64,000 nt of DNA from a virus (lineage: Duplodnaviria; Heunggongvirae; Uroviricota; Caudoviricetes): the IMG/VR virus record IMGVR_UViG_3300031718_000177; one strand, written 5' to 3'. Below are positions 6 to 30,298 of the stretch, piece by piece. How positions within the stretch are numbered: the first letter of the stretch is position 1; the number at the start of each line of letters is the position of its first letter. The position numbers and the translations under genes were made by a program. The notes below the pieces were generated by a model that saw only the letters and a list, made by a program, of their open reading frames with translations, was not told where the DNA came from and did no database searches.

Positions 6-239
6 ATGAATAGAGACCATGTTTTAGCAAGAGCAAACGGAGGAAGAAATCACAAAAATAATTATATTACAACATGCCTTTTGTGTAACAACTTGAAAGC
101 GGATGCCGATATTACCTACAGCCAACTATCAGGACTAAGACAAATATACAACAAACACAAGGGCAAAATGCCTCAAAAGGAATTCACCGCTATGATTAAA
201 GAAACTAGGAGTAAGATGGAAAAGGAAAATAAGTTATGA
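6..239 (+). CDS. HNH endonuclease, probably 5'-truncated by the window edge
   Basis: RDHVLARANGGRNHKNNYITTCLLCNNLK matches the HNH pattern; the frame is open to the window edge (LMNRDH, compare LILMTKDH in paralog 22858..23616). Confidence 0.75.
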   Translation: MNRDHVLARANGGRNHKNNYITTCLLCNNLKADADITYSQLSGLRQIYNKHKGKMPQKEFTAMIKETRSKMEKENKL

Positions 240-4244: not shown

Positions 4245-4619
4245 TTATTCCTCTACTAAAATCGCTTTTATATTATGGATTTCTAGAACATTATATTCGT
4301 GCTTACCGCCGTCCAAGCTAGGAACCAGTGTAGATGTACCCGTAGCTAACAATCTATCGCCGACCTTAATACCCAATTCATCGGCTTTTAGAGACGAACC
4401 AATGGCTACAACCCTCACTTGCCCTTGGTTCATGTTCTGTTTGGCGTCTTCGCCGATGTACAAAGACGTCCCAAGAACCTCGTCTGGATTTAGACGTTGA
4501 ACCAGGATACCTGAGCCAAATGGCTTTACATCCTTGATTTTCTTAAAGTTTTTGTTGCCGTGGCAGCAATGTTCGCTACCGCAATCTTCCATAGTTGATA
4601 CTAGTACTTTCTCTTTCAT
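4245..4619 (-). CDS. groES: Co-chaperonin GroES-like protein with a Cys/His-rich N-terminal extension
   Basis: VKPFGSGILVQR..SLYIGEDAK..VRVVAIG..GIKVGDRLL..YNVLEIHNIKAIL; GAGGAGG RBS before the ATG at 4619. Confidence 0.8.
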   Translation of the reverse strand: MKEKVLVSTMEDCGSEHCCHGNKNFKKIKDVKPFGSGILVQRLNPDEVLGTSLYIGEDAKQNMNQGQVRVVAIGSSLKADELGIKVGDRLLATGTSTLVPSLDGGKHEYNVLEIHNIKAILVEE

Positions 4620-4666
4620 GATATAATTCCTCCTCAATTATTATAGCGAACCATAAATATAATGCA

Positions 4667-5326
4667 ATGCTCAATTTCAAGAAATGGCTAGAAGTCCAGA
4701 TGGCTACAAAAGGCGATGTAGGCATTGGCGGTGGTAATGGCACGGACGATAGCGGAGGCGGCAGCGAAGGTAGTGAAGGCGACAACAAATGGATAGAACT
4801 ACTTTATCAAAAAAAGAAACAAATAGATGAATGGATGCTTCAATCTTCAATATTATCTAAACTGAAAGCTCTATTAGCTGAAAAACTATTAGCAACAAGA
4901 CCAGTCGGTCCTCAAAGTCCTATAATACTACCGCGTTCTGGCTATGTATTGCTATACTGGAGATTAGTAATAAACAAAAATATATTAGATGAAATAGGTT
5001 TATTATTTAAGAAATCTGATTTATGGAAACCGTTAGGTATAACGGCAGGAGAACTTTGGTCGTTTGTAGATACCCCGCGAGTACTTCAATTTCTTCTATA
5101 TCAAACAATAGGTCAAATCTTAGACAAGGATTTAATAGAAAAAAGCGTCAACGCTAGATTGTTCGATTACCATCAAGATAACCAACAGAAGATAGCAGAA
5201 ATGCTACCAAATGCGGTATTATCCGACCCAAGATTTAGTTCAGAAGTGGGATGGGGCGGTGATGAAGGATTTAGTATATACGCAAGAGGTACTATTACTT
5301 ACAGATTAAGAAACTCTAGGAAATAG
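4667..5326 (+). CDS. Hypothetical protein with an MLNFKKWLE N-terminus (possible capsid-targeted internal protein)
   Basis: Isolated plus-strand gene, ATAAATA just upstream, N-terminal F-K-K-W-L-E motif. Confidence 0.6.
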   Translation: MLNFKKWLEVQMATKGDVGIGGGNGTDDSGGGSEGSEGDNKWIELLYQKKKQIDEWMLQSSILSKLKALLAEKLLATRPVGPQSPIILPRSGYVLLYWRLVINKNILDEIGLLFKKSDLWKPLGITAGELWSFVDTPRVLQFLLYQTIGQILDKDLIEKSVNARLFDYHQDNQQKIAEMLPNAVLSDPRFSSEVGWGGDEGFSIYARGTITYRLRNSRK

Positions 5327-6760
5327 CGGAGGTATCTTAGCTGGGACACTTAAAAGTGGTACGCCTATACTATTCCAAGTCAAAGGAAAGCCCATACTTG
5401 TGGCAATTTTAGAACAAGTGTCTGGTAGAAATGGGGAGAGAACAACAGTAAGTTCTTTGATAGAGTTCATCAATTCGTAAAGTATTTTCTTGTCTTTAGT
5501 TTCCCAAGGTTTTGTCTCATTCACGAATTCATTACATTTATCTACAAAATCAAAGATAAGGACAAGAGCTTTATCTAACTCGAAGTTCATTACATTCAGA
5601 TTAATAGTTTGTATATCAAATTGACGGGAAAGTCGGTAGTCGTTAGATGTTTCTAACCCTATTTTCGCAGCAAGCGTAGTTGACCTACTTATCAAATTAC
5701 CTAATTTATTAGCGAGTTCTTTATTCAGATGTTCAACTAGCAAATCTTCCGAATAGGTAGCATCGTGAAAAATAGGACGACGCAATAAAGAATATCGCAC
5801 AGCATCAGTACCATATTTATCGATCAACTCAAATGGGTCAATTATGTTGCCATTACTTTTACTAATCTTTTCTCCGTGCTGATTGAGATAGCCGTGAATG
5901 ACGACACGTTTCGGCAATGGATAATCAGCAGCCAATAGCATCGCTGGCCAAACTGCCGTGTGAAACCAATTTATTCCCTTACCAATTAAATGCGTGCCTG
6001 GAAAATATCCAGCACAAGATTCACAATCACTACCCGTCAAATAGCTCAAAAGGGCATCAAACCAGACATAGATAGTTTGCTCGGGAAGGCCGAAACCATC
6101 TATGCCAATCGGAGAAGATATTCCCCAACCCGAATAAGGTCGAGAAACACAAACATCAATCAGAGGCCCGGATTTAATACGTTCTACAACTTCGTTAGCT
6201 CTAAACTTAGGGAAGACACGATATTCTAGGAAGTGGAGCAATTCGTCTCTATATTTATCTATCTTGAAAAAATAGCATTCTTCACTTAGAGTTTTTGGTG
6301 TTGTCTTATGTTCGGGACAACCACCATTTATCAATTCCTTAGATGTAATAAAACTTTCGCATCCTTCGCAATAGAAACCTTTGTAAGTTCCTTTCGTAAT
6401 TTCGCCCTTGTTGTATAATTTACGGAAGATATCCTGAACTACTTGTTTATGAACTGGGTCGGTTGTTCTTATGAACTTGTCGTAGGAAATATTTAGACAC
6501 TTACATAAAGCGATAAATGCCGAGGCGTTGCGGTCTACCAGTTCGCGTACAGGGCAATGTTCTTGTAGGGCGGTACTATAGTTCTTTTGTGCATTCTCAT
6601 CGGTGCCAGTTAGAAAACGCACATCGTAGCCGCGCAATCTGTGCCATCTAGCAACCACGTCGGCAACAACCTTCTCAAACGCATGTCCTATATGTGGACG
6701 TGCATTCACATAATCCATTGCCGTTGTAATGTAGTACTTGTTGTCGTACTCAGTGTCCAT
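5306..6760 (-). CDS. metG: Methionyl-tRNA synthetase (short form, no C-terminal Trbp domain)
   Basis: YYITTAMDYVNARPHIGH, FLTGTDE, FIRTTD, Zn knuckle CEGC..CPEH, YVWFDAL, IGKGINWFH, KISKS, DAVRYSLL, NKLGNLISR. Confidence 0.95.
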   Translation of the reverse strand: MDTEYDNKYYITTAMDYVNARPHIGHAFEKVVADVVARWHRLRGYDVRFLTGTDENAQKNYSTALQEHCPVRELVDRNASAFIALCKCLNISYDKFIRTTDPVHKQVVQDIFRKLYNKGEITKGTYKGFYCEGCESFITSKELINGGCPEHKTTPKTLSEECYFFKIDKYRDELLHFLEYRVFPKFRANEVVERIKSGPLIDVCVSRPYSGWGISSPIGIDGFGLPEQTIYVWFDALLSYLTGSDCESCAGYFPGTHLIGKGINWFHTAVWPAMLLAADYPLPKRVVIHGYLNQHGEKISKSNGNIIDPFELIDKYGTDAVRYSLLRRPIFHDATYSEDLLVEHLNKELANKLGNLISRSTTLAAKIGLETSNDYRLSRQFDIQTINLNVMNFELDKALVLIFDFVDKCNEFVNETKPWETKDKKILYELMNSIKELTVVLSPFLPDTCSKIATSMGFPLTWNSIGVPLLSVPAKIPPLFPRVS

Positions 6761-6911
6761 GTTGGTCGTCGGTTGGAAGACGCTTGACAATCCTAACGTT
6801 TTGGCCAAACAACAATCCCCGCCAGTTGAAGACGCCTATTATTATAGCCGCAATGATCCAAGAGCCGAAAACAAAGTACCAGCCGGGGTTTTCGTTGAAG
6901 TATTGAATCAT
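6750..6911 (-). CDS. Small membrane protein
   Basis: MIQYFNENPGWYFVFGSWIIAAIIIGVFNW has one TM helix; the start lies downstream of the terminator at 6932-6969. Confidence 0.5.
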   Translation of the reverse strand: MIQYFNENPGWYFVFGSWIIAAIIIGVFNWRGLLFGQNVRIVKRLPTDDQHGH

Positions 6912-10761: not shown

Positions 10762-11877
10762 TCATCGGTCGAACAGATTACGCAAAATTATCTTCTTAGA
10801 ATTACGCCATTCTTTCTCCAAGAACTCTTCATTTTGGTTATCACCATACTGGTCTCGGAGAGTAAAAAGTATGCTTGCAAACTTAGTTTTAGATATTACT
10901 GTTTGAGCAAACTCTTTACGAGTGGGCATTTGCCAATATTGACGCCAAGTGTCGCATAATTGCTTGTATGCTTCGACTACTATTTGTTTATTTTTGGCAT
11001 AATCTTCCTTGACCTCTGGAAAAATGGCCAACATTTCTTCGTCTTCTCCAAACATAAAATCAATTTGGTACTTGGGATTGAATAAATTACCAGATTCTCC
11101 TTTCATCGCATGGTAGGTAAGGTAGATAGGATTTTTCACTTTCCATCGTCGGTTTTGTTTGTCCCTAATAACTATACCTTCATACGTAGCGTCTTCATTA
11201 GCAACACTATCAATGTGGTCATGCACTTCGTCTATATTTCGGAAATGATAACTCTTGGGTCGGAGCATCTTATATGCTTTGTTCCTAACGATGTAATCAC
11301 ACTCAAAAGATGTAAGCTCCTCATAGCCCCTAAACGCACTTAGGAGATAAACTGCTGGCTCTTTATATGAACGGACAATTTTGTTATATGGAGATACTAA
11401 CTCAAAAACATAGGTAAGTTGTGGGTCTAGATTTATCGCATCAATTTTACAACCGATAGCAATCTCAAAGATTTCAGCCCAAGTATAAGGAGAGAATTGC
11501 AATTTATCCGTAGCGAATGAGCCACGAGTACTGACCATCCACTTATTATTGAAGTTATATAATAGGAAAAGCGAGCCGTCTTCCTTAGATTGAGCTTCAC
11601 AATGATGCCAGTTGAATAGTTCCATCTCTTCGGGATACTCACCGACGTTGAAAAACCGCTCGAAAGCTCTGGCGACTAATTCTTTTGTCCGCGAATGAAG
11701 TGTTAACGCCCTACATTCCCTTACAATAGGATGATTACGCGGCTTACTCTCAATAGTGTCATAGTTAAGAATAGCGAGAGGCAGTTCAGGATGCATACGT
11801 ATATTAAGAGCGAACTCTTTTTCAAGAGTAGCTAAACTATTGCCAGGAGTGTTTAAGTACTTTTGGACTTCAAACAT
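10762..11877 (-). CDS. T4 Rnl1-like RNA ligase
   Basis: RAFERFFNVGE, KEDGSL motif I, STRGS, TYVFELVSPYNKIV, EGIVI, WKVKNPIY. Confidence 0.9.
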   Translation of the reverse strand: MFEVQKYLNTPGNSLATLEKEFALNIRMHPELPLAILNYDTIESKPRNHPIVRECRALTLHSRTKELVARAFERFFNVGEYPEEMELFNWHHCEAQSKEDGSLFLLYNFNNKWMVSTRGSFATDKLQFSPYTWAEIFEIAIGCKIDAINLDPQLTYVFELVSPYNKIVRSYKEPAVYLLSAFRGYEELTSFECDYIVRNKAYKMLRPKSYHFRNIDEVHDHIDSVANEDATYEGIVIRDKQNRRWKVKNPIYLTYHAMKGESGNLFNPKYQIDFMFGEDEEMLAIFPEVKEDYAKNKQIVVEAYKQLCDTWRQYWQMPTRKEFAQTVISKTKFASILFTLRDQYGDNQNEEFLEKEWRNSKKIILRNLFDR

Positions 11878-14126: not shown

Positions 14127-14744
14127 TCATTGGTGATGGTCAACACCTGAAAAGGACGGCAACTTATCCATCAAATCGCATATCTCATATTCGCCTAGCG
14201 GGGCTTTCCATACATCCCATCCGATATCAAAAGCTTTTCCTTTAACGTAATCTTTGGGCAGATTACCATGAGAGTGTCCTAGAAGGTGATAAGAACCTTT
14301 ATGAACCTTATTCCAGACACCAGCGATATAGTAGTGAAATAATACCGTCAAATGATTTTTACCACGTTTATCTCTGAGATAGATTTCCTTATATTCCTGC
14401 ACACTACTGAAACACTTTTGATACTCTGGGTTTCTTCGGATAGCATCGTCGTGATTGCCGTACACGAGGTGCGTATTACGACATACAATCCTACTTCTCC
14501 AATAAGGTATTTTCTTTTTATCGCCAAAAGTGAAATCACCTAGTATCCATAGTTCATCATCCTGACCGACAACATTGTTGATACTTTTTAGTACGGTCTC
14601 GTTCATCTCAACGAGAGTATCAAAATCTCTACACCTACTTTTATCGTCCCAATGACTTTCGCCACGGCACAAGTTGCGATGCGAGATGTGTAGGTCGGCA
14701 GTGAAATATTTCACTCCGACCTGTTCTCCTGTTCTTGTGTTCAT
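14127..14744 (-). CDS. Calcineurin-like metallophosphoesterase
   Basis: FTADLH, LWILGDF, VYGNHD, LFHY, LLGHSH. Confidence 0.92.
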   Translation of the reverse strand: MNTRTGEQVGVKYFTADLHISHRNLCRGESHWDDKSRCRDFDTLVEMNETVLKSINNVVGQDDELWILGDFTFGDKKKIPYWRSRIVCRNTHLVYGNHDDAIRRNPEYQKCFSSVQEYKEIYLRDKRGKNHLTVLFHYYIAGVWNKVHKGSYHLLGHSHGNLPKDYVKGKAFDIGWDVWKAPLGEYEICDLMDKLPSFSGVDHHQ

Positions 14745-15522: not shown

Positions 15523-16520
15523 TCGTCTAATTCCTTAGCTTTTTCCTTGAAATAATCCCATGCTTTTACAAGAGCTTCTTCTGTTTTCTTATCATCTACT
15601 TTAATTCCCCCAGATATATCAATTCCGAAAGTCTTCTTCATTTCATCGATGAAATATGACATTGCGTATGGTGCTTGTGGGTATCCGGCAAGTTTTCCAA
15701 AATCCTTTAATTTATGAGGCAAAGATGTCTTAAAAATTGACTCATTATAGGGTCGTGTATATCCAAAACCTTCTGCCCATGTACCTCCAGATATACGGAA
15801 AGGTTTTTGACCTGCCAACCTACGAGGGTCGGCTATATTAGTTTTTGACGCAAGGATTTCTGCTTTAGGATTCCACTTTTTAAGTGAATATTGTGACTGC
15901 GAAGGATAAGCAAAACCTGCTAACCTCAACAAAGAATAAAACACAGTAGGATCGGTATTCATATTCGTAAGTACGAAATAATTGTCCTCAAAGATTATCG
16001 TATCCCTTGAACCAAAAGCAGACACCCACGGCGATTCTTGCGAGAGGACAAATTCATAATATGGAACATTAAGAAGCTTTTTAACAGCAGCATGACAGAT
16101 AATATAAATAATATCCCCTTCTGGAAACGCCACACTAATATCTCTTGGGAAATACGGATTCATAAAGTATCGTTCGCCATGCGAATCACGGTATTTCACA
16201 AGGCCGCCAAGGCACGGCATGTTGTGCCGCCAATAAGTAAAATACTCATTATCTCGGAAAACAGTAATCGCATATGCTCCCCCATGCGATTTACCCATTA
16301 AGAAATCAATCGCCCCAAGAGCCTCTTCTTTTGTTTTCGTGCGGATAAACTCATCGTCACGATAAACGCTTTTTGATTGGACGGGCTTGGCCCATGACCA
16401 CTTTACGGTCTCAATCTTAAACATCTTAGACCCTCGTATGACTCTTTTTGTCTTAGCATTCTTCTTAGTACTCTTTGCCCTTAAGTTCTTACTCTTGCTC
16501 TTTAACAATCTCTTTAACAT
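15519..16520 (-). CDS. Hypothetical protein (true start may be internal)
   Basis: Long ORF in the operon; no family recognised. Confidence 0.65.
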   Translation of the reverse strand: MLKRLLKSKSKNLRAKSTKKNAKTKRVIRGSKMFKIETVKWSWAKPVQSKSVYRDDEFIRTKTKEEALGAIDFLMGKSHGGAYAITVFRDNEYFTYWRHNMPCLGGLVKYRDSHGERYFMNPYFPRDISVAFPEGDIIYIICHAAVKKLLNVPYYEFVLSQESPWVSAFGSRDTIIFEDNYFVLTNMNTDPTVFYSLLRLAGFAYPSQSQYSLKKWNPKAEILASKTNIADPRRLAGQKPFRISGGTWAEGFGYTRPYNESIFKTSLPHKLKDFGKLAGYPQAPYAMSYFIDEMKKTFGIDISGGIKVDDKKTEEALVKAWDYFKEKAKELDE

Positions 16521-17211
16521 CGCTAGTCCTTAACCTATTAGGTATAATAGGTGCAGTAGCCCAATGTACCTCTCGTATGCTTAAACCAAAATGAGGTGCT
16601 ATGAACTTGGCACAATTCTTATTGAAATCATCATAATGAAATGGTTTAACATTCCTTACAACAAACCCTTCGGGATGTTGCGGACGCACACAAGTTGCAT
16701 TCTCAAATATACCAATATTGGACTCGAAAGGCCAGAGGACTTTCGCCGTTTCTTCGTCCCATTTACCACGATATATGATAGGAACAGTAGTCAATTCCAG
16801 TAAATCGCACCATTCTTCTGTTTCTTTCCACGATAAACACTTGTTTTCATCGTCATAAATGCCATATACGAAAAAGTAAGTAGGTAGATTGGTGTAGAAT
16901 AGAGAGTGAAAAGCGAAACAATTCTCACCAACTACCCTATACCCTTGTGGTAAAAGATAGGCCCATTTGGCAGCAAAGTTTTTTAACCAAGCCCTACTCG
17001 GATGATGACCGCTATCAATAGAACGGGCGTGGACGTAGCCATCGGGGTAGCAGGAACTACACTCCCCGTCCATCTTCATTGAAATAACTACATCTTCTCC
17101 CTCAAAGATAGAGCAATCTTTTAGCCATACATCATCACTGGAATTGCTCTTTGAGAAAGGAAGGTTTTTGGTACGTGGATATTTAAGGCGTTTCATATAT
17201 TTACCAGGCAA
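16489..17211 (-). CDS. RNA ligase family protein (Rnl2/PF09414-like nucleotidyltransferase)
   Basis: KYPRTKNLPFS, KMDGE, HARS, GENCFAFHSLFY, FFVYGI, EGFVVR, AKFI. Confidence 0.85.
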   Translation of the reverse strand: MPGKYMKRLKYPRTKNLPFSKSNSSDDVWLKDCSIFEGEDVVISMKMDGECSSCYPDGYVHARSIDSGHHPSRAWLKNFAAKWAYLLPQGYRVVGENCFAFHSLFYTNLPTYFFVYGIYDDENKCLSWKETEEWCDLLELTTVPIIYRGKWDEETAKVLWPFESNIGIFENATCVRPQHPEGFVVRNVKPFHYDDFNKNCAKFIAPHFGLSIREVHWATAPIIPNRLRTSDVKEIVKEQE

Positions 17212-17461
17212 ATATGGGAAGTTCCACTACATTCGCAGCATAAAGGATTGGATTCTTAGCATAAATATTATTATTACCATTACTAAGTTTAAGCGGCTTT
17301 ACAGCAACTTTGTCTGGTGGCACGTAGAATGCTTTAGATTTAGGGTTATACGGATAAAGTTTCACAACTTTTCCAATAGTATATTCTGTACCACCGCCAC
17401 CGCTAGTACTGAAAATAACTTTGCTCCCGACAACAAGTTTATTGCCAAATGCGTCTTTCAT
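17201..17461 (-). CDS. Small SH3-like hypothetical protein
   Basis: MKDAFGNKLVVGSKVIF pattern. Confidence 0.6.
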   Translation of the reverse strand: MKDAFGNKLVVGSKVIFSTSGGGGTEYTIGKVVKLYPYNPKSKAFYVPPDKVAVKPLKLSNGNNNIYAKNPILYAANVVELPIFAW

Positions 17462-17763
17462 TTCAATTCCCTACGAGCATCATCTATTTTATGCTGCTTC
17501 CACCAATCTACGAGAGATTCTGGTATGGGCCTACCAATAGACTCCAGTTGACCACATATATGACATACCTCCGCAGTAAGCGTACTAAGCGTGTGATTTA
17601 AACACCATTCTCTGTCTCGTTGATGGTCTTTACTTCTACTAGAACAATCCTCTTTGCCGACAGCTATGGCGTCACAAGCCGTAATAAGCCGTAGAACATG
17701 ACCGCTAATTACAAGATTGATTTCGGATGGCATTTCTTCCATGTAATCACTACGGCAGGGCAT
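17458..17763 (-). CDS. Phage hypothetical protein (MPCRSDY type)
   Basis: MPCRSDY N-terminus and WWKQHKIDDARR C-terminus. Confidence 0.65.
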   Translation of the reverse strand: MPCRSDYMEEMPSEINLVISGHVLRLITACDAIAVGKEDCSSRSKDHQRDREWCLNHTLSTLTAEVCHICGQLESIGRPIPESLVDWWKQHKIDDARRELK

Positions 17764-17766
17764 GGC

Positions 17767-18165
17767 CTACTCCCTAGATGTTTTCTCTTTTTCCCTTACT
17801 TTCTTCATCATATCTTGTGGAGCTACCGGCAATGTACGAACCGTCATATTAAACCACTCTGCCTTTGTATAACCCTCATTATCCTTGTCCCTAACTAAAT
17901 ATTTTACCTTATTGACTTCACCCTTCTCATTATGTACTTCGGCTTCGAATAGTATACCGCTCATACTAACAAAGGGAACTGATTGAAACTTTGTGGTTAT
18001 ATTGCCCTTATATCCTCTACCTTGGATTTCTTGACTCGCATTATGATTATCAAGCATATCGTGAGCATTAACGAACAGTATGTCCAATAACTTATTAGAT
18101 AATGGTTTGCCAGAGTTCATTAGGCAGAAAATCTTGAACTTCATATCCAATTCCTCCTCAACCAT
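17767..18165 (-). CDS. Hypothetical protein
   Basis: Packed ORF. Confidence 0.6.
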   Translation of the reverse strand: MVEEELDMKFKIFCLMNSGKPLSNKLLDILFVNAHDMLDNHNASQEIQGRGYKGNITTKFQSVPFVSMSGILFEAEVHNEKGEVNKVKYLVRDKDNEGYTKAEWFNMTVRTLPVAPQDMMKKVREKEKTSRE

Positions 18166-18503
18166 TCCAACACTTCGAAACGCACATGTCCGTCTCCATT
18201 ATCTGTTAGTTCGTCATTGTCATCCAACCCAGCTTTCTCTGCCCATTCTGCTATCTTATCTGGTTTCAATAACATCTTGAAAAGAATATAGTGCATACCG
18301 GCAATCCACGCAAAATGTTGTAACGGCTTTACAAAATCATTGTACGGGCAATCAATTTCAGATATATCTCTGTTCTCCCAATAAGCTTCGAGAGTAGCCT
18401 TCTGCCCTTCCATGTGTGCCTCATAAGTTACTCTATTGAATTCGGGCTCTATGCAATCAAGTATTCTACCTAGCGGTAATTTACAATGCGGGCACCTATC
18501 CAT
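18141..18503 (-). CDS. Hypothetical protein
   Basis: GAGG RBS; CPHC motif. Confidence 0.6.
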   Translation of the reverse strand: MDRCPHCKLPLGRILDCIEPEFNRVTYEAHMEGQKATLEAYWENRDISEIDCPYNDFVKPLQHFAWIAGMHYILFKMLLKPDKIAEWAEKAGLDDNDELTDNGDGHVRFEVLEWLRRNWI

Positions 18504-18565
18504 GTTTCATCTTCCTCAAATGTCAATGTATCTAACAGTTTCTACAGGAAGTTTCTTAACTGATT

Positions 18566-18670
18566 TTAGTTTAGCCCACTCCACGGCGGGCAATCGGGAA
18601 TGAACCATGATACAAGAAACGAAAACAAAATGTATCCCACAACAAAAATAGTGAGCAAGATTTCCATCAT
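18566..18670 (-). CDS. Small single-TM peptide (34 aa, not in ORF track)
   Basis: MMEILLTIFVVGYILFSFLVSWFIPDCPPWSGLN; overlaps the upstream stop; AGGAG RBS. Confidence 0.5.
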   Translation of the reverse strand: MMEILLTIFVVGYILFSFLVSWFIPDCPPWSGLN

Positions 18671-19980
18671 ACTCCTACCTTTCTATCTAAACTCCAATGC
18701 TCGGGCATATGTTTTGGCTCCATAGTTGAGACAAAATGCTTACGCCATCTTTCATAGAAAGCTTGGTAGTCAGTTATCTTGTCTGCAACTAATTGACCAT
18801 AAGGAATATGAATACCACTGGTACTACGGCTAAAAGACCGGGCTTTATCAGTTAAGAGCTTAATATCTTCATCAGATATAATATCTTTCTTAAGATATTC
18901 TCGCAACACATTTATGAACTTATCTTTTCTCTCAGCAGGCAACTTGTCTCCGTGTCTAAATAAAGCAAATGCAGATTTAATGGCTATATTTTCCGCTTCA
19001 TCACGAATAGGGAGAATGCCGTGAACCGGTACACCGAACTCTTCGGATATTTGCTTCTTCAATATATCTGCCTTACGTTCATACTTTAAGTGACAAGTCA
19101 CACACGTCAGCACAATATCGTGAAAGCAATGTTGTTTGATAAACTGCGGGAAATGCCGCCTATAAGCAATCGGTACAATATGGTGCTTACTCAGTTCAAA
19201 TCTTGTACCGCAAATAACACAAATATTCTGTTTAACCGACAGTGCGAACGGATCATCTGCGTTCTTCCGACCTTTTGGCGGGAAAGTTAAACGGATTACT
19301 TTTTCTTCAATTTCAACAGCTAGACCTCTAGACAAATACCATTTCGCTCTATGAGTATCAGTACGAGCCAACGGTTTCCCGTTTGGGTCTTGCATCAAAT
19401 AGTTACCGTAGATATCATCTCGCATTTGTGCTCGCATGCTCTTGTAACTATTAAATTTCTTGGTTCGCAGTATTTCGTAAACGCTAGTATGTTCTCTGGG
19501 GCGAGCATACCAATTTTTATGTTCTTTTATGTATGCTAAAGCTTCATCGATACGACCTTGCTGCCACAAATCCATCACTGTATTTTTATACCTACTAAAG
19601 TTATTTACACGTACTTCTACGCGCGGATCAAATGGCGTTACGAAACCAACATCAAAGTTTATCTCACTATAAAGTGAGTAGGTCATATCTTTGATAAAAT
19701 ATTCATCGTCACGAAGATAATTACGCGAACCAAGGACAATTGCGCAGGTACGACGATGCCCATCGTGTAAGTAAAGCTTGCCATCCTCAAAACGAGTGAT
19801 TCCTATGAGTTTTGGCTTATCGCCAGATAATTTCGGACGCTTACTCTCAAAGAAGTGCGAAGGAAGCACTTCCTCAGTAAAATAACCATTCTGTCTAACG
19901 AACTTAATCATCTGTCGGAAAGTAGCTCCAACAGGTATGGTATCCTGAGTCACAATGAGATTTTCAATCTCGATTGGCAT
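18667..19980 (-). CDS. ParB/Srx-like domain fused to an EXD2-type HNH domain
   Basis: LYLHDGHRR in the N-terminal half; C-terminal half YGNY..DPNGKPL..AKWYL..NICVICG..HHIVPIAYRRHFP..HDIVLTCVTCH..RWRKHF..MEPKHMPEHWSLD. Confidence 0.8.
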   Translation of the reverse strand: MPIEIENLIVTQDTIPVGATFRQMIKFVRQNGYFTEEVLPSHFFESKRPKLSGDKPKLIGITRFEDGKLYLHDGHRRTCAIVLGSRNYLRDDEYFIKDMTYSLYSEINFDVGFVTPFDPRVEVRVNNFSRYKNTVMDLWQQGRIDEALAYIKEHKNWYARPREHTSVYEILRTKKFNSYKSMRAQMRDDIYGNYLMQDPNGKPLARTDTHRAKWYLSRGLAVEIEEKVIRLTFPPKGRKNADDPFALSVKQNICVICGTRFELSKHHIVPIAYRRHFPQFIKQHCFHDIVLTCVTCHLKYERKADILKKQISEEFGVPVHGILPIRDEAENIAIKSAFALFRHGDKLPAERKDKFINVLREYLKKDIISDEDIKLLTDKARSFSRSTSGIHIPYGQLVADKITDYQAFYERWRKHFVSTMEPKHMPEHWSLDRKVGV

Positions 19981-19990
19981 TCAAGGATTC

Positions 19991-21553
19991 CTAAACTGCT
20001 TGCAAACTTTCGGCATCAATGTTAACGTATTTTAGACCAGGTTTATCACTCATAATTGGAAAGTCCTCTACGAATGTCCATATCATTTCTTCCATATCTA
20101 CCATCCATCCATCTATATCCCGTCTCATATCTACGATTCGATAGTTGCTATTACCAAAAACAGGCAATTTATACTTAACCATCTGGCCCAAAGCAAATGG
20201 GCTCACATCTATAGGATCGTCCCCCTTCCGAATAGTACACCTGTCGGAAAGTAGCCCCGTGCGTTTTACCGGAGGAGTCGCTTCAGTCATCATGTCTAAA
20301 TACCACTTATCTCCTCGCATAAAAATGTTGCCTACAATACCGTATTCAAGAGAATCATTTTCCGACGCTCTATAAGATATTCTCTGGCCCCTCTTGAATG
20401 GGGGCGAAAACGGGCCAAATTGAGGTGCTTTACGACACTTTGATTCGTGTACAGCACGTCTCATTTGACCATTTGTATCAAGGATGTCTATGTACCATCC
20501 TTCATTTACATAAGTCAGGTCTTTAACAATTCCTTTCCTGAAAGGAAGTAATGGCGAGCTTTTACAATACCTCTTGAGACCTTCCAAGTATTCAATCGGT
20601 AGATGATAATCATCTTCCTCATAATAAAACTCTATTTCTTCGTCTTTAGCAAAAGGGGCGTCAGAAGTTTCGAATGGTTCACAATCAGTTGCTTTAGCTT
20701 GAAAAATAGAGTTCCCAGAAGAAATAGACAAACCAAGTACTTTTCCTAAGGTATAAATACTTTCAACAGTGCCAACCTCCTGTTCGCCATGACAATTACA
20801 GATTACCTTTTGTCCTGGAAAGAAAGAAGTAGGACGACCTACTGTGCTGGTTGTAATTACATCGTCAAAAGTTATACAATATATGTCAAGTTTATTTCCA
20901 TTATTGTGATGCACATCTAGCGTTCTAATTTCCGGATATACCTTACCTATAACGCCAATAATCTTTTTACCTTCGTGCCAAAAACTGACTTCCTGCCCTT
21001 TTTTCCAAGGGCAATTAGTTTTGTCGTCTCTTATATCTTTCCCAGTGTCCAGTCGTTCTAGCCAATAATCGTAGTCATTAAGGTTGATAATTACCGGCAC
21101 TGGTATCCAACGTTGGGCGGGTTCAATCCACTGGTCGCTCCGTCTTTTGGCCAGTACAGTTGCCACTTTTTCAGTAACTTTGAGGGCTATATAATCTGCC
21201 CCCTCACAGCTATACCACTTCTTAATATCTTCGTCGGTAACTTCAATCCTTACGTCATTGATAAACTGTTCGTCTGTCTTAGACCGCCAACTTAAGTACC
21301 AATGAATACCATTATGTGTATTTTTCCTAGTTGGTTTTTCATCCTGAGATTGCTCAAGAGCAGCGATATATCGTAAGTGCAGAGCGAGAGCATCGCATAA
21401 CATAGCCGCTTCATACGGCGATAATGTCGTTACAACATCCTTGTTCATAAAGAATTCGGGATGTCGCTTTAATGGTTCATCGTTATCTAGGCATATAAGC
21501 CACTTCTGACCAGTTTCAGGATGAACAACCGATTTGTAATATTTGCTACTCAT
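19991..21553 (-). CDS. Protein with about five tandem SH3/KOW/Tudor-like modules
   Basis: Recurrent P-F/W-x-x-G-Q-x-V/I starts: PWKKGQEV, FFPGQKV, PFAKDEEI, PFKRGQRI, PFALGQMV. Confidence 0.6.
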   Translation of the reverse strand: MSSKYYKSVVHPETGQKWLICLDNDEPLKRHPEFFMNKDVVTTLSPYEAAMLCDALALHLRYIAALEQSQDEKPTRKNTHNGIHWYLSWRSKTDEQFINDVRIEVTDEDIKKWYSCEGADYIALKVTEKVATVLAKRRSDQWIEPAQRWIPVPVIINLNDYDYWLERLDTGKDIRDDKTNCPWKKGQEVSFWHEGKKIIGVIGKVYPEIRTLDVHHNNGNKLDIYCITFDDVITTSTVGRPTSFFPGQKVICNCHGEQEVGTVESIYTLGKVLGLSISSGNSIFQAKATDCEPFETSDAPFAKDEEIEFYYEEDDYHLPIEYLEGLKRYCKSSPLLPFRKGIVKDLTYVNEGWYIDILDTNGQMRRAVHESKCRKAPQFGPFSPPFKRGQRISYRASENDSLEYGIVGNIFMRGDKWYLDMMTEATPPVKRTGLLSDRCTIRKGDDPIDVSPFALGQMVKYKLPVFGNSNYRIVDMRRDIDGWMVDMEEMIWTFVEDFPIMSDKPGLKYVNIDAESLQAV

Positions 21554-21562
21554 TTGCTCAAA

Positions 21563-22630
21563 TCATTTCGCTGAAGGTATTATTGGGAATACATTTTCGG
21601 GAACATGATTCTTCGCAGAACCTCTAAGTAATGATTCTAGCTGAGTATGATTATCGTTAAAATAAAGTATTGATTCAATAGGTAAATCCCCATCAGGAGT
21701 CGGCATATGAACATCCACACTCACAAGCCTACCTATGACCGTTACTTCATATCCGTGAGCGTCTTTAATATGAAATCCTCTGTAACCCAGAGGGTTATCT
21801 TCTACTAATTTCAGTATGCCGCTCTTACGTTCAGTATCGGTCGCTAAATTAAGACTGCGAAACGCTGCCACAAAAGAATCGGCCTCGGCCTCCGAAAGAG
21901 CCCAAGTGAGATTCTCTTTGCCACTGAAAGCATCTAGGGTCACTTGAATAGGAATGCCGAGATTAGGTTGCCAACGTCCGGACTTTGCTTTAATTTTTAT
22001 GGGTTCTGGCATTTGTTTATCAAGCCAAGAAGGCTGTTCAACTTTTTCTTCGGTAACTTCTTTATTTACTTCGGCAAGTTTCGGGTTAAGCGGCAATTTC
22101 CCAGACATAAGGGGCGATACATAATTCCCATCACGCCAAGTTGGGTTTAATACTTTTTCGCTAGACTTTTTTCTTTCTTCTTCAATCTGTTGACGAACCT
22201 GCCGAGCTTCCTTATCCCATTTCACATATTTTAGTGGATCATTAACTACGACGGGACTCTTTCTTGATGCGTCTGCTGCCTTCCTGGTTTCAATAACGTG
22301 CGATACAACGTCTTTGCCTAAATGACAAAACTCAATAATCGCTTCACTAAAGTCAAATAGACGCTGACGAATATGAAGGCTTCTAAACCATGCTGGCATA
22401 AGACGTAAAAAGTTTGCTCCACTCTCTAGGAAAGATATAAACTTATCGTTCCTTAATAGGAAACTCAAAGCCCCGCAAACAATAGCAGCAGCTAACAGCC
22501 ATTCCCAAAGACTCTTGAAACCAATAAAATCTTCTATAAGAGAATATCCAAAACGCATCGCAAAGAGGAAGAAAGATATGAGAGCTGCGACATACAGTTT
22601 ATCTGGCAAATCAGAATTACGGAGATTCAT
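21563..22630 (-). CDS. Membrane-anchored hypothetical protein
   Basis: Two N-terminal TM helices, a charged linker and a globular C-terminus. Confidence 0.65.
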   Translation of the reverse strand: MNLRNSDLPDKLYVAALISFFLFAMRFGYSLIEDFIGFKSLWEWLLAAAIVCGALSFLLRNDKFISFLESGANFLRLMPAWFRSLHIRQRLFDFSEAIIEFCHLGKDVVSHVIETRKAADASRKSPVVVNDPLKYVKWDKEARQVRQQIEEERKKSSEKVLNPTWRDGNYVSPLMSGKLPLNPKLAEVNKEVTEEKVEQPSWLDKQMPEPIKIKAKSGRWQPNLGIPIQVTLDAFSGKENLTWALSEAEADSFVAAFRSLNLATDTERKSGILKLVEDNPLGYRGFHIKDAHGYEVTVIGRLVSVDVHMPTPDGDLPIESILYFNDNHTQLESLLRGSAKNHVPENVFPIIPSAK

Positions 22631-22868
22631 ACAACACCTCTAAATTGTTTATCAAACGAAATGTATTACGATGGCCAGTATATTCTTCCAACGCCTGCAA
22701 CACGATAGCCGTCGCCATCTGTTTATGATACCATCTATTGGCCAAACCTGAAAGAGTCAATTCCATCGCATCCAAATTAACAGCGTATTCTATAACAACT
22801 CCATGTAAACGCTGGCTAGCGAGCAACATTATTCGCTTAACAAGGACTTCCGTTTCTTCACCTATCAT
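22617..22868 (-). CDS. BON-like domain protein
   Basis: LTLSGLANRWYHKQMA..INNLEV resembles planctomycete BON proteins. Confidence 0.55.
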   Translation of the reverse strand: MIGEETEVLVKRIMLLASQRLHGVVIEYAVNLDAMELTLSGLANRWYHKQMATAIVLQALEEYTGHRNTFRLINNLEVLYESP

Positions 22869-23616
22869 TTGGAATCATTGCTTTCGTCAAAATTGTGGAA
22901 CTTTCAATTTGTTTTTTAGCGACCATCTCTTTCCTGGCTTCGGAAATTAATTGCCATAATTTTTTCTCTGTAAGATTTGAGTTAGCATCAAATAATGCCC
23001 GTAAATCCCTGAATTGTTCATTGCTTATAGGATAAGCCGATTTTAAGAAATTGTTACAAAAATAGCAACATGTTTGGAGGTTAGAGATATGATTTTTCCC
23101 TTCTTGTGAAATCGGTTTGATATGATCCTTAGTCATAAGAATTAACATACCATCCTTCTCACCGTAGAAATCAAAATGTCCTTTGTGTTGTCCAGATAAA
23201 TGAGCATGTTGTTCTAATAACGCCACAGTAGCCTGTAAATTACAAGCTACGCAGTTAAGACTTCGCTTGAATACTTTATATCTTTTCGAGGTCATACATA
23301 CCGAATAAGATATACCGCCAACCATATAACTACGATAAGATTGCCCGATACCCACGAATGGTAATACATCATTGGGAGTAAATTGCCCTATGACCTTGGA
23401 CAACATCCCGCTTGCGCGACCGTATTTGTCGCAAAAATGTTTCCTGCGTTCTTTGTTCATTTCCTCCTTAAATATTCCCATAAATATTGGTTCCTCATCC
23501 GGCACAACTACTCTAGTTGGCTCTGTCCATACCGTTTCTAATTCTTTTCCGTTTCTATATTTCCATTGATATAGAAGTGGATAATCACATGGAGGGAATG
23601 GACCGAATGTCTTCAT
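22858..23616 (-). CDS. HNH endonuclease
   Basis: CVAC..TKDHIKPISQEGKNHISNLQTCCYFCNN. Confidence 0.85.
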   Translation of the reverse strand: MKTFGPFPPCDYPLLYQWKYRNGKELETVWTEPTRVVVPDEEPIFMGIFKEEMNKERRKHFCDKYGRASGMLSKVIGQFTPNDVLPFVGIGQSYRSYMVGGISYSVCMTSKRYKVFKRSLNCVACNLQATVALLEQHAHLSGQHKGHFDFYGEKDGMLILMTKDHIKPISQEGKNHISNLQTCCYFCNNFLKSAYPISNEQFRDLRALFDANSNLTEKKLWQLISEARKEMVAKKQIESSTILTKAMIPNDR

Positions 23617-23619
23617 CTT

Positions 23620-24420
23620 TCATTCATTTCCGCCTATCTCAAACTTAAACGGATGGTCTGGATTATTGTGGTCAGTTAAATCTTGGTCAATTTCTTCTTC
23701 TTTAGTTTCTTCATTCTTTAATTGTTTAATTGTATCTGGCGTTAAGTCAAAATAACAGCCTTCTTCTGGAACTATGTTCAACGCTACAAACAAACATCCC
23801 TCTCGCTTAAATTGTAGATTGATGTGATAATGTCCGAAAATAAATATTTTCGGCTTATGCATCTCAAACATCGCTTGTAAACCCTGGCTGGTCTTAGTTC
23901 TGATAACCGAATGATCGTAACCGTGGTTATGAGCAACCATAGGGTTGGATACATCGCCCACTACGGATAGCGGGGCTTCATGGGAAATCATAATATCCGG
24001 TTCAACCTGTGAATACAGAATAATAGCTTGATCGATCTCTCTCTTGCCTAATTCCTCCTCCTCGGACCAAGACAAACCTTTCCTTTTATGATTAAGTGAG
24101 AAACCACCTCGCATATAAAAGATAAATGGCATATGAGGAATATCTATTGTGCCATAATCTCCCAAAAAATGTTTCATCTTACGCCAATACCACTCACTAG
24201 ATGTATCGAAAACCTCGTGGTTTCCAGTAAACGCCCTATGTCTACTCGGTTGTAGAGCATGTAAAAATTGATAATCTCTCCCACTTAAATCGCCAACCTG
24301 GATAGAGTATTCTGCTTGTTTGGCAAGTTTGATATAGTCGGGTATCCTATCGCCGCCGTGGACATCTCCCAGGACTCTAACGTAAGCCAGTTTATCTGAT
24401 GCTCTACGTGCAATCATCAT
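23620..24420 (-). CDS. Metallophosphoesterase
   Basis: LGDVHG, IQVGDL, FTGNHE, ISHEAP, IFGHYH. Confidence 0.9.
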   Translation of the reverse strand: MMIARRASDKLAYVRVLGDVHGGDRIPDYIKLAKQAEYSIQVGDLSGRDYQFLHALQPSRHRAFTGNHEVFDTSSEWYWRKMKHFLGDYGTIDIPHMPFIFYMRGGFSLNHKRKGLSWSEEEELGKREIDQAIILYSQVEPDIMISHEAPLSVVGDVSNPMVAHNHGYDHSVIRTKTSQGLQAMFEMHKPKIFIFGHYHINLQFKREGCLFVALNIVPEEGCYFDLTPDTIKQLKNEETKEEEIDQDLTDHNNPDHPFKFEIGGNE

Positions 24421-24749
24421 CCCATTCCCACTAAAACAAAATATTTACTAAGTAAATCTTTTATACCTTTCCATGACTTTTGTTCCGCAATAGCATCACT
24501 AAGAAACACAGGATCAACACCATGCTCTATTTTTATACCACGCATCTTGTAGGAAAAAGTGTTAGCCACTAAATCTCGCTCTATATATAGCGAAGCATCA
24601 TTGATGAAAGTACCAGTGCGGTCAAAAGGACCGGACGCAGGAGCTTTAAGGCGATAATAATGCCAAGACCTTCTATTATCCCCGTAAGTTCCTCGGTCTT
24701 TCCGGTCTAGAATATGCATAAATGCCCTACACGGGATAATCTTCGTCAT
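24417..24749 (-). CDS. Hypothetical protein
   Basis: Overlapping operon ORF. Confidence 0.6.
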   Translation of the reverse strand: MTKIIPCRAFMHILDRKDRGTYGDNRRSWHYYRLKAPASGPFDRTGTFINDASLYIERDLVANTFSYKMRGIKIEHGVDPVFLSDAIAEQKSWKGIKDLLSKYFVLVGMG

Positions 24750-28794: not shown

Positions 28795-29997
28795 TTATAC
28801 CTTCGTTAAAGGGAACATCCCTAAATCTAGCATACATTTCCCAAGTATCTCGTGTGTGTAGCGTATCGCATATATAAAAGCCAAACGACCGCCACGGATT
28901 TGTTCAGTATGATATGCGTTGCCCAACATACGGGCTAGATTATGAGCATACGAAGCTACACTCACAGGGTCAAATTGTTCGGTAGCACGATTACGCCAAT
29001 ACGGATAATAGCACGCGTATCCCAAAAGATTGTAATCTATTTCGTGAAAATATCGCTCTGTCAATATGGTATGATGGCGAACATTCTCAACGCCGAAAAA
29101 TGGAACACTTGATAACGCAGACGCAATACGAGCATATGTGTATGTAATGTACAATCCGGCTTGTTCGGGCTTCGTCCATTCTTCTACATTAAAGGAAACA
29201 TTTTGGCTACGAACTACGTGTAAAAAGTTCCAAGCCAGAATGTTCCATGCTAGTTTTTTTGGCTCCGGCGTTTCATCCAAACGATCTATTACCATCCGAA
29301 TAGCATCGGTAGCCAAAAGAGCATTTCCATCGCGACTTTTGATTTTCTTTTTCGTAACAGGGTCTAAAACCAAACCCATGCTTAAATGTTTGTCGCCTAG
29401 ATTTAGTTTCTGAAAATGCTCTTGCTGTTCTGCTCCGGTTAAATAATGTGTGGGAGCGACAATTTGTGCGAAAGCAAGATCGTGGTAAGCGTAGGTAGTT
29501 TTACCATCACTTTTACGTATAACTTCTGGCCCTTTGGGGCCTTTCCAAACTAGACAATCTTTATAATCACCTTCACCTTTTTCACAAATTAGAACTGCTT
29601 TGTCAGACATTTCCAAGTCGGTATAAATCTCTGGCTTATATCCGACAAAATCAAGCCATTCATATAAAGATTTCTCTGCTTCTGGCGAGATACCCAAACT
29701 ATGTCCTAGCATAGATACAAAACGACTATTCTTGAAAAGGACTTGTAAAGATTTCGCCAACGCCAAATTACGCAGGTGTCCTACATGCAGATGTTTATTG
29801 AGATTGGGCGAGAAAGCATCAACTACATATTTTGGGGCATCAGGATAGTCAAGCGGCCATTTCCAGCAATTTTCATTTACATGATAGTTGTGGAATCGTC
29901 CCTCTGCCTTATAGGTATAGTCCGCCATCTGTGGCAATGGCGTCATAGAAACGAAGCCAACGCCGAAATTATCTGGAATCGGGCGAATTGTTGTCAT
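28795..29997 (-). CDS. argS: Minimal arginyl-tRNA synthetase
   Basis: DAFSPNLNKHLHVGHLRN, RKSDGKTTYAYHDLA, GAEQQEHF, KKIKSRDG, GLYITYTYARIAS, DALR-like C-terminus. Confidence 0.85.
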   Translation of the reverse strand: MTTIRPIPDNFGVGFVSMTPLPQMADYTYKAEGRFHNYHVNENCWKWPLDYPDAPKYVVDAFSPNLNKHLHVGHLRNLALAKSLQVLFKNSRFVSMLGHSLGISPEAEKSLYEWLDFVGYKPEIYTDLEMSDKAVLICEKGEGDYKDCLVWKGPKGPEVIRKSDGKTTYAYHDLAFAQIVAPTHYLTGAEQQEHFQKLNLGDKHLSMGLVLDPVTKKKIKSRDGNALLATDAIRMVIDRLDETPEPKKLAWNILAWNFLHVVRSQNVSFNVEEWTKPEQAGLYITYTYARIASALSSVPFFGVENVRHHTILTERYFHEIDYNLLGYACYYPYWRNRATEQFDPVSVASYAHNLARMLGNAYHTEQIRGGRLAFIYAIRYTHEILGKCMLDLGMFPLTKV

Positions 29998-30298
29998 CGA
30001 ACGACACTTTCCCTTCATAGAGTATTACTTTATAGTACAGCGGAGGACCAGTGATGGCTTCATAGAGTTTGTTTTTAGCATCTGCCCAATTCTGATCGAT
30101 ATAAGCGGAGTCACGTTGACACTTTAGACAACAATAAACATATCTTATTAAGTACCACCAACAAAAGCAGTGCGATGAATGTTGTCGAGAACGGAATGCG
30201 CTTGTATATAAGGCAGGTTCAATTTCGGGTACACGTTGTTTCATCTCAATGGCGTGTTTCGCTAATATTCCTACTTGATAGCATGTAAAGTCATTCAT
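29969..30298 (-). CDS. Paralog family member 3
   Basis: FTCYQVGILAKHAIEMKQRVPEIE. Confidence 0.65.
   Translation of the reverse strand: MNDFTCYQVGILAKHAIEMKQRVPEIEPALYTSAFRSRQHSSHCFCWWYLIRYVYCCLKCQRDSAYIDQNWADAKNKLYEAITGPPLYYKVILYEGKVSFDDNNSPDSR

Follow-up and report, generated by a model that had tools for sequence, protein, structure and literature searches.

A phage gene that fuses a putative ParB/Srx-type domain to an EXD2-type HNH module: a candidate nucleotide-regulated nuclease in the neighborhood of an RNA ligase

Introduction

HNH enzymes use a single metal ion to cleave phosphodiester bonds, and their products have 5'-phosphate and 3'-OH ends; domains of the ParB/sulfiredoxin (ParB/Srx) type bind nucleoside triphosphates (NTPs), with CTP being the ligand in ParB, Noc, and KorB and ATP the ligand in sulfiredoxin and SerK. 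The two kinds of domain are combined in GmrSD, BrxU, and SspE, where ParB/Srx is N-terminal and HNH is C-terminal and the parts are encoded by two genes or by one fused gene (PMC4619093, PMC13251355). The HNH domain of SspE is licensed by GTP hydrolysis (PMC13251355), and in conflict proteins of phages, ParB domains have been described as DNases under NTP control (PMC5512222). Here we describe a phage protein, P0001, that is encoded on the minus strand at positions 18667-19980 of a 64,000-nucleotide stretch of the IMG/VR record IMGVR_UViG_3300031718_000177 (Caudoviricetes); this whole stretch is referred to as the window. P0001 joins a domain modeled with a ParB/Srx fold (N module) to an HNH module related to the C-terminal region of eukaryotic EXD2 (C module). 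The reading that we prefer, with a probability of about one half, is drawn by analogy and holds that P0001 is a two-part nuclease in which the ParB/Srx module would regulate or target the HNH module by nucleotide binding, within a cassette that includes an RNA ligase.

EXD2 has been examined for roles in the repair of DNA, the protection of replication forks, mitochondrial translation, and antiviral RNA decay. The protein begins with a membrane anchor and a DEDDy exonuclease (PMC6648332), and its C-terminal 'HNH-like' part has been described as a predicted domain of 60 residues with no assigned function (PMC6648332; bioRxiv 10.64898/2026.01.12.699136). The full-text literature that we searched contained no published link between this region and homologs from phages or bacteria. 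Jumbo phages carry sets of RNA-repair proteins that include Rnl1, Rnl2, RtcB, and TROVE proteins (PMC7824862).

An original prediction, made from the letters of the window, had described P0001 as a eukaryote-like nuclease module in a new architecture and had proposed that it might be a nucleotide-gated nuclease or an anti-defense effector. The observation behind that prediction is confirmed by the analysis reported here, and the interpretation is supported in part.

The fused gene

The gene comprises an ATG start, 437 codons, and a stop codon, exactly as predicted, and its translation contains every motif that had been quoted for it, namely DGHRR (residues 73-77), YGNY, DPNGKPL, AKWYL, NICVICG, KHHIVP, HDIVLTCVTCH, RWRKHF, and HMPEHWSLD. 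An AGGA ribosome-binding site can be read at positions 19989-19992 on the minus strand, 8 nucleotides 5' of the ATG, where it shares nucleotides with the stop codon of the 520-codon gene that precedes it.

One explanation for such a gene is that a sequencing or assembly error merged two adjacent genes, with the second one starting at an internal MRAQM. Both modules are normally separate genes, the N module usually being encoded by one of about 170 codons, and the junction of P0001 (residues ~176-189, positions 19414-19455, minus strand; low model confidence) contains the internal Met codons at the very position where stand-alone C-module proteins begin. We regard this explanation as hardly credible. 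The fusion is real, since the reading frame is continuous, with neither a stop codon nor a frameshift, no Shine-Dalgarno sequence precedes the internal ATG, and a collinear protein, P0002 (436 amino acids), from an unrelated JGI metagenome joins the two modules in an identical order, with 37% identity over 98% of the length (E 1.3e-83). The joined-gene error that the original prediction had named as its own possible undoing is thus all but excluded.

The fusion is also rare. P0002 is the only fused protein among 95 N-module open reading frames (ORFs) that were gathered from viral contigs, from metagenomes, and by other look-ups, and among the best 150 C-module representatives only P0001 and P0002 have an N module attached. 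A pattern scan of 185,579 prokaryote species, each represented by one genome, detected seven loci with an N module, none of them fused, so the arrangement is not already common in bacteria; two of the seven are phage-like contigs of metagenome-assembled genomes, and four lie in Lentzea or Streptomyces chromosomes. A word-indexed search with region 1-185 in its full-length context found the query alone and yields no count of fusions. A hint from FastTree that the P0001 and P0002 fusions had two origins was dropped: an approximately unbiased test does not reject a single clade (p 0.62), and the tree constrained to one fusion clade scores 10.3 log-likelihood units better.

The EXD2-type HNH module

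The C module spans residues 190-437 (positions 18670-19413, minus strand). An AlphaFold2 model built with an alignment of 20 homologs places it at a predicted local distance difference test score (pLDDT) mostly above 90 and divides it into a beta-hairpin subdomain, a zinc-HNH core, and a helical bundle. When the model was compared with the Swiss-Prot models by Foldseek, residues 184-433 matched residues 348-603 of human EXD2 (E 1.1e-21, 31% identity, 261 columns), followed by mouse EXD2 (E 1.3e-21), Drosophila EXD2 (E 8.5e-19), and residues 488-875 of Arabidopsis RRP6L3 (E 2.3e-18), and the fifth match dropped to E 0.2. The full-length resemblance to EXD2 claimed for residues ~190-437 therefore holds. 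EXD2 (human Q9NVH0, ~348-603) and RRP6L3 share all three parts of the module, including the W-R-x-H-F and P-x-x-W motifs, and the homologous unit of about 250 residues is four times longer than the 'HNH-like domain' published for EXD2, which is confined to residues 408-470 (PMC6648332). In fold clusters of the AlphaFold database (AFDB) and in the ESM Atlas, the module is C-terminal to DnaQ-type exonuclease domains in many eukaryotes, and the matching AFDB clusters hold many eukaryotic entries named '3'-5' exonuclease'; stand-alone C-module proteins of 250-340 amino acids are found in the same two resources from eukaryotes, Uroviricota, and Planctomycetota.

The beta-beta-alpha-metal core of the HNH fold lies at residues 254-301 (positions 19078-19221, minus strand), with C254-x2-C257, H266-H267, D288, and C293-x2-C296-H297. 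The Pfam HNH model covers it from model position 1 to 45 of 47 below threshold (15.9-17 bits versus a cut-off of 21.4), and some C-module relatives match DUF968, likewise below threshold. A whole-model Foldseek search against the PDB returned only the 48-residue HNH core of IscB, which superposes with a root-mean-square deviation of 1.6, and no solved structure there spans the full C module; a sequence search of the PDB with the whole protein returned nothing relevant. Across 176 sequences, C254, H266, H267, D288, H297, and Y300 are conserved in all, C257 and C293 in 97-98%, and W412, R413, F416, and W429, the residues of the W-R-x-H-F and P-x-x-W motifs, in 97-100%. Because C254, H266, H267, D288, and H297 are invariant in this set, the C module is, as far as sequence can tell, a zinc-HNH family with a complete catalytic set, and it is predicted to be a metal-dependent nuclease.

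A profile of the C-module family matches residues 183-435 of P0001 at E 1.7e-92, and an exhaustive search with a C-module profile found at least 3218 clusters (50% identity) at E<=1e-3, of which 1346 are at E<=1e-30. Judged by these matches, the C module is a large unnamed family for which Pfam has no model. The best 150 clusters are mostly stand-alone proteins of about 250 amino acids, and all nine of the stand-alone contexts that were fetched are contigs of large phages. The C module is thus not foreign to phages, the huge ones being among its chief carriers; with at least 3218 clusters, and with a large-phage contig in every context examined, the description of the C module as eukaryote-like was not upheld as it stood. 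P0001 has no match to PF01612 or to any other exonuclease domain in Pfam, and its ParB/Srx domain stands in the place that the membrane anchor and exonuclease occupy in EXD2. Since it has no exonuclease domain, P0001 is a member of an EXD2-C-type HNH family and not an EXD2 ortholog. The stand-alone phage relatives of the C module (P0007, P0009, and proteins of the huge phages LR7565xx), like those of the N module (P0021 and P0025), show 35-45% identity and have the same invariant residues; they differ in being separate polypeptides, the modules being joined in P0001 and P0002 only.

A separate observation concerns P0032 (346 amino acids; positions 5001-6041 of locus L016), a C-module protein with two profile matches that is extended at its N-terminus by part of the first beta-hairpin subdomain, present there for a second time. 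Its neighbors include an HD_4 protein, a sigma-70-like factor, a PF09414 ligase, and a WGR-PARP protein.

The predicted ParB/Srx-type module

The N module comprises residues 1-175 (positions 19456-19980, minus strand). Eight stand-alone proteins of 159-193 amino acids were recovered with residues 1-185 as the query (E 1e-29 to 6e-17); contigs of 622 and 673 kb carry two of these. The model built from an alignment with stand-alone homologs has a pLDDT of 89.7 and a predicted template modeling score of 0.84, and ParB/Srx proteins make up nearly all of its first 45 Foldseek matches in the PDB, among them sulfiredoxin (best E 8.6e-3, probability 1.0), Atu1540, Noc, ParB, KorB, SbnI, and SerK. VIA, an aligner independent of Foldseek, ranked sulfiredoxin (Z 7.7), Atu1540 (Z 7.7), and human sulfiredoxin (Z 6.4) first among 48,161 chains, with KorB (Z 5.5), SerK (Z 5.4), and PadC (Z 5.1) in ranks 4-6. 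Three of ten N-module relatives match Pfam ParBc_2 (PF08857), the family of Atu1540 (PDB 2hwj), with a best E of 1.9e-4 that is below the gathering score; no other Pfam family is matched by these relatives, and a search of PDB sequences with the N-module profile gave chance matches only. The scores are individually moderate and all agree on one superfamily, so we accept a ParB/Srx fold for the model of the N module; the original call of ParB/Srx for the N-terminal half is borne out at the level of fold, and its support in sequence is weak. The best structural matches, sulfiredoxin and Atu1540 (Foldseek probability 0.97-1.0), are only 12-16% identical to the N module, which is set apart by invariant T-P-F-D-P-R and V-R motifs of its own and by helices that extend it at the C-terminus.

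The DGHRR motif (residues 73-77; positions 19750-19764, minus strand) lies between a strand (69-71) and a helix (75-83) of the model. By its position there, DGH(H/R)R may be equated with box II of ParB (GERR) and with the GCHR motif of sulfiredoxin. The N module appears to have no counterpart of the catalytic Cys in the FGGCHR motif of sulfiredoxin, the corresponding stretch being DGH(H/R)R. Among 78 non-identical relatives D73, G74, R77, E93, T115, P116, and R124 are invariant, and by analogy the N module is predicted to bind a nucleotide at the arginine-bearing motif. The DGHxR signature that had drawn attention to the protein is therefore sound in D73, G74, and R77; the family consensus, however, is DGHHR, and DGHRR is peculiar to the window copy.

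Canonical partition ParB has a helix-turn-helix, a C-terminal dimerization domain, and a ParA partner. P0001 does not belong to that group, for Pfam HTH_ParB and ParB_C have no match in it, and the rest of the protein is the HNH module.

Two side observations concern the distribution of the N module. Its only clearly cellular homologs (L104-L107) are in the Lentzea and Streptomyces chromosomes, where they have an N-terminal extension of about 90 residues and adjoin a C39-peptidase ABC exporter, with neither an HNH nor a C-module neighbor. In a large soil-metagenome clade (the L024-L058 group, e.g., L027 3989-4774), the N module is fused C-terminally to a helix-hairpin-helix domain resembling the C-terminal domain of the RNA polymerase alpha subunit (alpha-CTD).

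Linkage of the two modules in other phages

Where the modules are not fused they can be encoded side by side. At L055, L068, L080, and L085, an N-module gene, an alpha-CTD-like gene, and a stand-alone C-module gene lie on one strand with 260-290 nucleotides between the N and C modules; the middle gene encodes the helix-hairpin-helix of RNA polymerase alpha-CTD type (PF03118, up to 29.4 bits versus a cut-off of 23.8). At L096, from a separate branch of the N-module tree, an M50-peptidase-like gene stands between the N and C modules. Neighbors were counted only where 1.5 kb or more of sequence flanks the N-module gene on each side, which left 46 loci. An EXD2-type module is a close same-strand neighbor at four of these loci, and an HNH_5-type nuclease (the family of P0029 and P0030) is one at 13, with a gap of -49 to +490 nucleotides in most. 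The 13 loci fall in four clades of the N-module tree, and HNH_5 genes are found directly beside stand-alone N-module genes at L001, L002, L010, L083, L091, and L098. The window has an HNH_5-type nuclease of its own (252 amino acids; positions 22858-23616, minus strand; Pfam HNH and HNH_5), 3 kb upstream of P0001 and 40% identical to P0029/P0030 (E 1e-37). The HNH neighbors of this small ParB/Srx protein come from two subfamilies that are unrelated to each other, and with one of the two it is found fused in two proteins. The arrangement suggests that the two modules work as a pair, which phages encode split or fused, a pattern that has been described for GmrS and GmrD (PMC4619093). A complex prediction for the N module and the C module gave a score of 0.00, which counts neither for nor against.

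These recurring partners also bear on the possibility that P0001 is a selfish homing endonuclease that does nothing for the phage and took up a ParB-like domain for DNA binding. HNH homing enzymes are frequent in phages, with one encoded in the window at 56671-57921, and a rare and patchy fusion is what such an element might leave behind. We nevertheless consider this origin very improbable: more than 3000 clusters, along with housekeeping proteins of eukaryotes, conserve the 250-residue module over its full length, its partners are recurrent and co-oriented, no intron, intein, or disruption of a target gene surrounds the P0001 gene, and none of the homing-endonuclease families of PHROG rises above noise for the protein.

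Two further features were noticed at these loci. A conserved gene of 238-240 codons that has no sequence match in the PDB lies between the EXD2-type module and an RNA ligase at L055 (5598-6314), L068 (4913-5629), and L080 (5942-6664). At the start of the window a short ORF (6-239, plus strand) resembles the N-terminal part of the HNH_5 family, with 37% identity over 73 residues and E 1.5e-17 to the HNH_5 gene of L002, and may be a second or partial copy.

RNA ligase and Ro60/Rsr neighbors

A PF09414 RNA ligase (positions 16489-17211, minus strand; Pfam 93.8 bits) is encoded on the same strand 1.5 kb downstream of P0001; its search against PDB sequences gave no match. Close homologs of this ligase (E 1e-49 to 1e-59) are found 0.3-2 kb downstream of the C module at L055, L080, L096, and L016/L017, such that the ligase is downstream in all four evaluable loci where the N and C modules are linked and also at L016, which has no N module. 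Stand-alone N-module genes have an RNA-related neighbor as well. At six phage loci (L007, L013, L012, L084, L079, and L078), which represent at least two clades, a Ro60/Rsr (TROVE) ortholog (E 7e-108 to Deinococcus Rsr, PDB 2nvo) directly follows the N-module gene within about 30 nucleotides; at L007 it occupies positions 4567-6264.

This neighborhood points to a repair or conflict cassette centered on an RNA ligase. The suggestion that P0001 is an anti-defense effector found no specific support. A related combination has been noted in jumbo phages as HNH-Rnl2 fusions, in which an HNH domain accompanies an Rnl2-like ATP-dependent ligase (PMC7824862, citing Burroughs and Aravind 2016), as it does here. 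P0001 differs in that the link to the ligase is one of neighborhood, the HNH is of the EXD2 type, and a ParB/Srx module is fused or alongside.

The same neighbors raise the main alternative, in which the cassette serves RNA repair or processing: the HNH module would trim damaged tRNA or the ends of other RNA for the PF09414 ligase, and the ParB/Srx module would be an NTP-using enzyme for healing or sensing such ends and not a DNA clamp. Cuts made by an HNH enzyme leave the ends that an ATP-dependent ligase needs, and the recurring ligase and Ro60/Rsr genes fit this scheme, as does the richness of the window region in a methionyl-tRNA synthetase (MetRS), an Rnl1-type ligase, phosphoesterases, and an arginyl-tRNA synthetase (ArgRS)-like gene. 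The N-module matches include the kinases SerK and SbnI, and sulfiredoxin, SerK, and SbnI are all phosphotransferases. In eukaryotes the module is fused to 3'-5' exonucleases of the EXD2 and RRP6L3 types, and EXD2 has been discussed as a ribonuclease (PMC6648332); TROVE proteins and RNA ligases are recognized parts of RNA repair in jumbo phages (PMC7824862). Set against this, the great majority of HNH enzymes cleave DNA, and in the split cassette the gene in the middle encodes an alpha-CTD-like helix-hairpin-helix domain of a kind that typically binds DNA. An ordinary HNH_5 nuclease is likewise found as a partner of the N module, and the closest solved analogs of the architecture act on DNA. 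Moreover, the link to a ligase also fits with an attack on DNA while RNA is repaired, as has been proposed for the HNH-Rnl2 fusions (PMC7824862). Taken together, we view a role in RNA repair as possible but somewhat unlikely.

A candidate NTP-regulated nuclease

How does P0001 compare with the described ParB/Srx-plus-HNH systems? GmrSD, BrxU, and SspE combine DUF262 (PF03235) with DUF1524 (PF07510), and the two domains of P0001 belong to different subfamilies. The N module is small (~170 residues) and nearest to sulfiredoxin and to Atu1540/ParBc_2, its HNH partner is of the EXD2 type, the gene is carried by a phage and not by a bacterial defense island, and the partners are the alpha-CTD-like protein and the PF09414 ligase. 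The architecture was originally thought to be new. The general design is known from GmrSD, BrxU, and SspE (PMC4619093, PMC13251355), and what is new is its construction from other subfamilies of both domains, with new partners.

In the two-part nuclease that we favor, the N module would bind, and perhaps hydrolyze, an NTP and so license or target the HNH nuclease, in the manner of GmrSD, BrxU, and SspE. The HNH module would cut nucleic acid and leave a 5'-phosphate and a 3'-OH. The enzyme would act within a phage cassette containing the PF09414 (Rnl2-like) RNA ligase, such that nucleic acid of the host or of a rival might be attacked, or damaged RNA processed, while the ligase carries out repair. 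Licensing by an NTP is proposed because GmrSD and SspE set a precedent and the N module conserves an arginine-bearing motif, and an NTP-regulated nuclease is probably a reasonable analogy for P0001.

Several points weigh against the two-part nuclease. P0001 has no match to DUF262 or DUF1524 in Pfam, nor to any PADLOC model, including those for GmrSD, BrxU, and SspE, and for this reason is not a member of these systems. The sequence support for ParB/Srx is below threshold, P0001 has no above-threshold Pfam match of any kind, and the Foldseek E-value of the N module is near 1e-2. The link between the modules appears facultative, since most N-module loci show no HNH partner in view and at seven of the 12 C-module loci neither an N module nor a PF09414 ligase is encoded within 4 kb, the nearest PF09414 match at L018 being a weak one about 7 kb from the C module. 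The window shares three genes with the phage neighborhood of L002, and part of the linkage could be synteny inherited among related huge phages, although the intervening genes and the gene order differ between linked loci. The substrate may be RNA rather than DNA, because the N module pairs with Ro60/Rsr and the eukaryotic fusions are to RNA/DNA exonucleases. Finally, the window copy alone among the 78 N modules has R76 in place of the H found in the 77 others, giving DGHRR against the DGHHR consensus, and it alone has P16, where 76 of the 78 have R. With R16 and H76 replaced, the nucleotide chemistry of this particular N module may be altered or lost.

These replacements, along with the long branch (1.07) of the window copy in the N-module tree, would fit a passive tether, that is, a ParB-like module that binds nucleic acid or a partner and positions a constitutively active HNH module without any nucleotide gating. 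We judge such a tether to be quite improbable. The seven residues that are invariant in all 78 relatives, the window copy included, form a pattern more like that of an enzyme or ligand pocket than that of a plain binding surface, and the N module of P0002 retains the full family consensus.

A wider proposal is that the ParB/Srx module, the EXD2-type HNH, and the PF09414 ligase, joined in some lineages by Ro60/Rsr or the alpha-CTD-like protein, constitute a new phage pathway for the repair or processing of nucleic acid. Its small ParB/Srx domain would depend on an NTP and serve as an enzyme or a switch, with either RNA ends or the nuclease as the target, and the C-terminus of EXD2 and RRP6L3 would be a descendant or sibling of the active nuclease. 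As a whole we hold this proposal to be unlikely. If it is true, a domain of EXD2 that so far lacks a biochemical role would gain a definite one. The homologous unit in EXD2 is some 250 residues long, and it has a large, catalytically intact family in huge phages with recurring partners, so the function of the C-terminal region of EXD2 becomes testable with simple, soluble phage proteins, for which the substrate, the end chemistry of the products, and any NTP regulation are the points to address. The design would also be a second, independent combination of ParB/Srx and HNH beside GmrSD and SspE, on the phage side.

Genomic context of the fused gene

The ATG of the P0001 gene is 10 nucleotides past the stop codon of the 520-codon gene (19991-21553, minus strand), and this gap suggests that the two are co-transcribed. 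Together with a gene for a 355-residue protein further upstream, the 520-codon gene occupies positions 19991-22630 on the minus strand, the co-directional genes being spaced by 10 and 9 nucleotides, and the three genes are probably one transcription unit. Neither upstream gene had a match in Pfam or PHROG, and a scan for promoters and terminators from 16000 to 24500 gave no signal beyond that of shuffled sequence to mark the ends of an operon. The 520-residue protein has several repeats that resemble small barrels of the SH3, Tudor, or KOW type; this likeness consists of weak structural leads in the ESM Atlas (TM-score <0.3), with no family match.

The record that carries the gene, taken here as that of a large soil phage, is 292,671 bp long, the guanine-plus-cytosine content of the window is about 40%, and the P0001 gene is present in a single sequencing run, of DNA from a soil metagenome that is probably the source, with no RNA runs listed. 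Genes of the window that are typical for huge phages encode MetRS, an ArgRS-like protein, two RNA ligases, phosphoesterases, a ClpX-like ATPase, a phosphoribosyl pyrophosphate synthetase, and a homing-type HNH endonuclease, and homologs of P0001 are found on IMG/VR viral contigs and in 600-kb records labeled 'uncultured phage'. The assignment to a phage is an indirect one, drawn from these genes and homologs. A cluster of genes related to RNA and tRNA (5306-6808, 10762-11877, 14127-14744, 16489-17211, 23620-24420, and 28795-30018, all minus strand) encodes MetRS, the Rnl1-type RNA ligase, a phosphoesterase, the PF09414 RNA ligase, a metallophosphoesterase, and the ArgRS-like protein, and the 64-kb window contains no tRNA genes. 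The gene at 56671-57921 (minus strand) encodes a 416-residue protein that is unrelated to P0001 and has a C-terminal HNH/homing-endonuclease match (phrog_559, E 2e-19).

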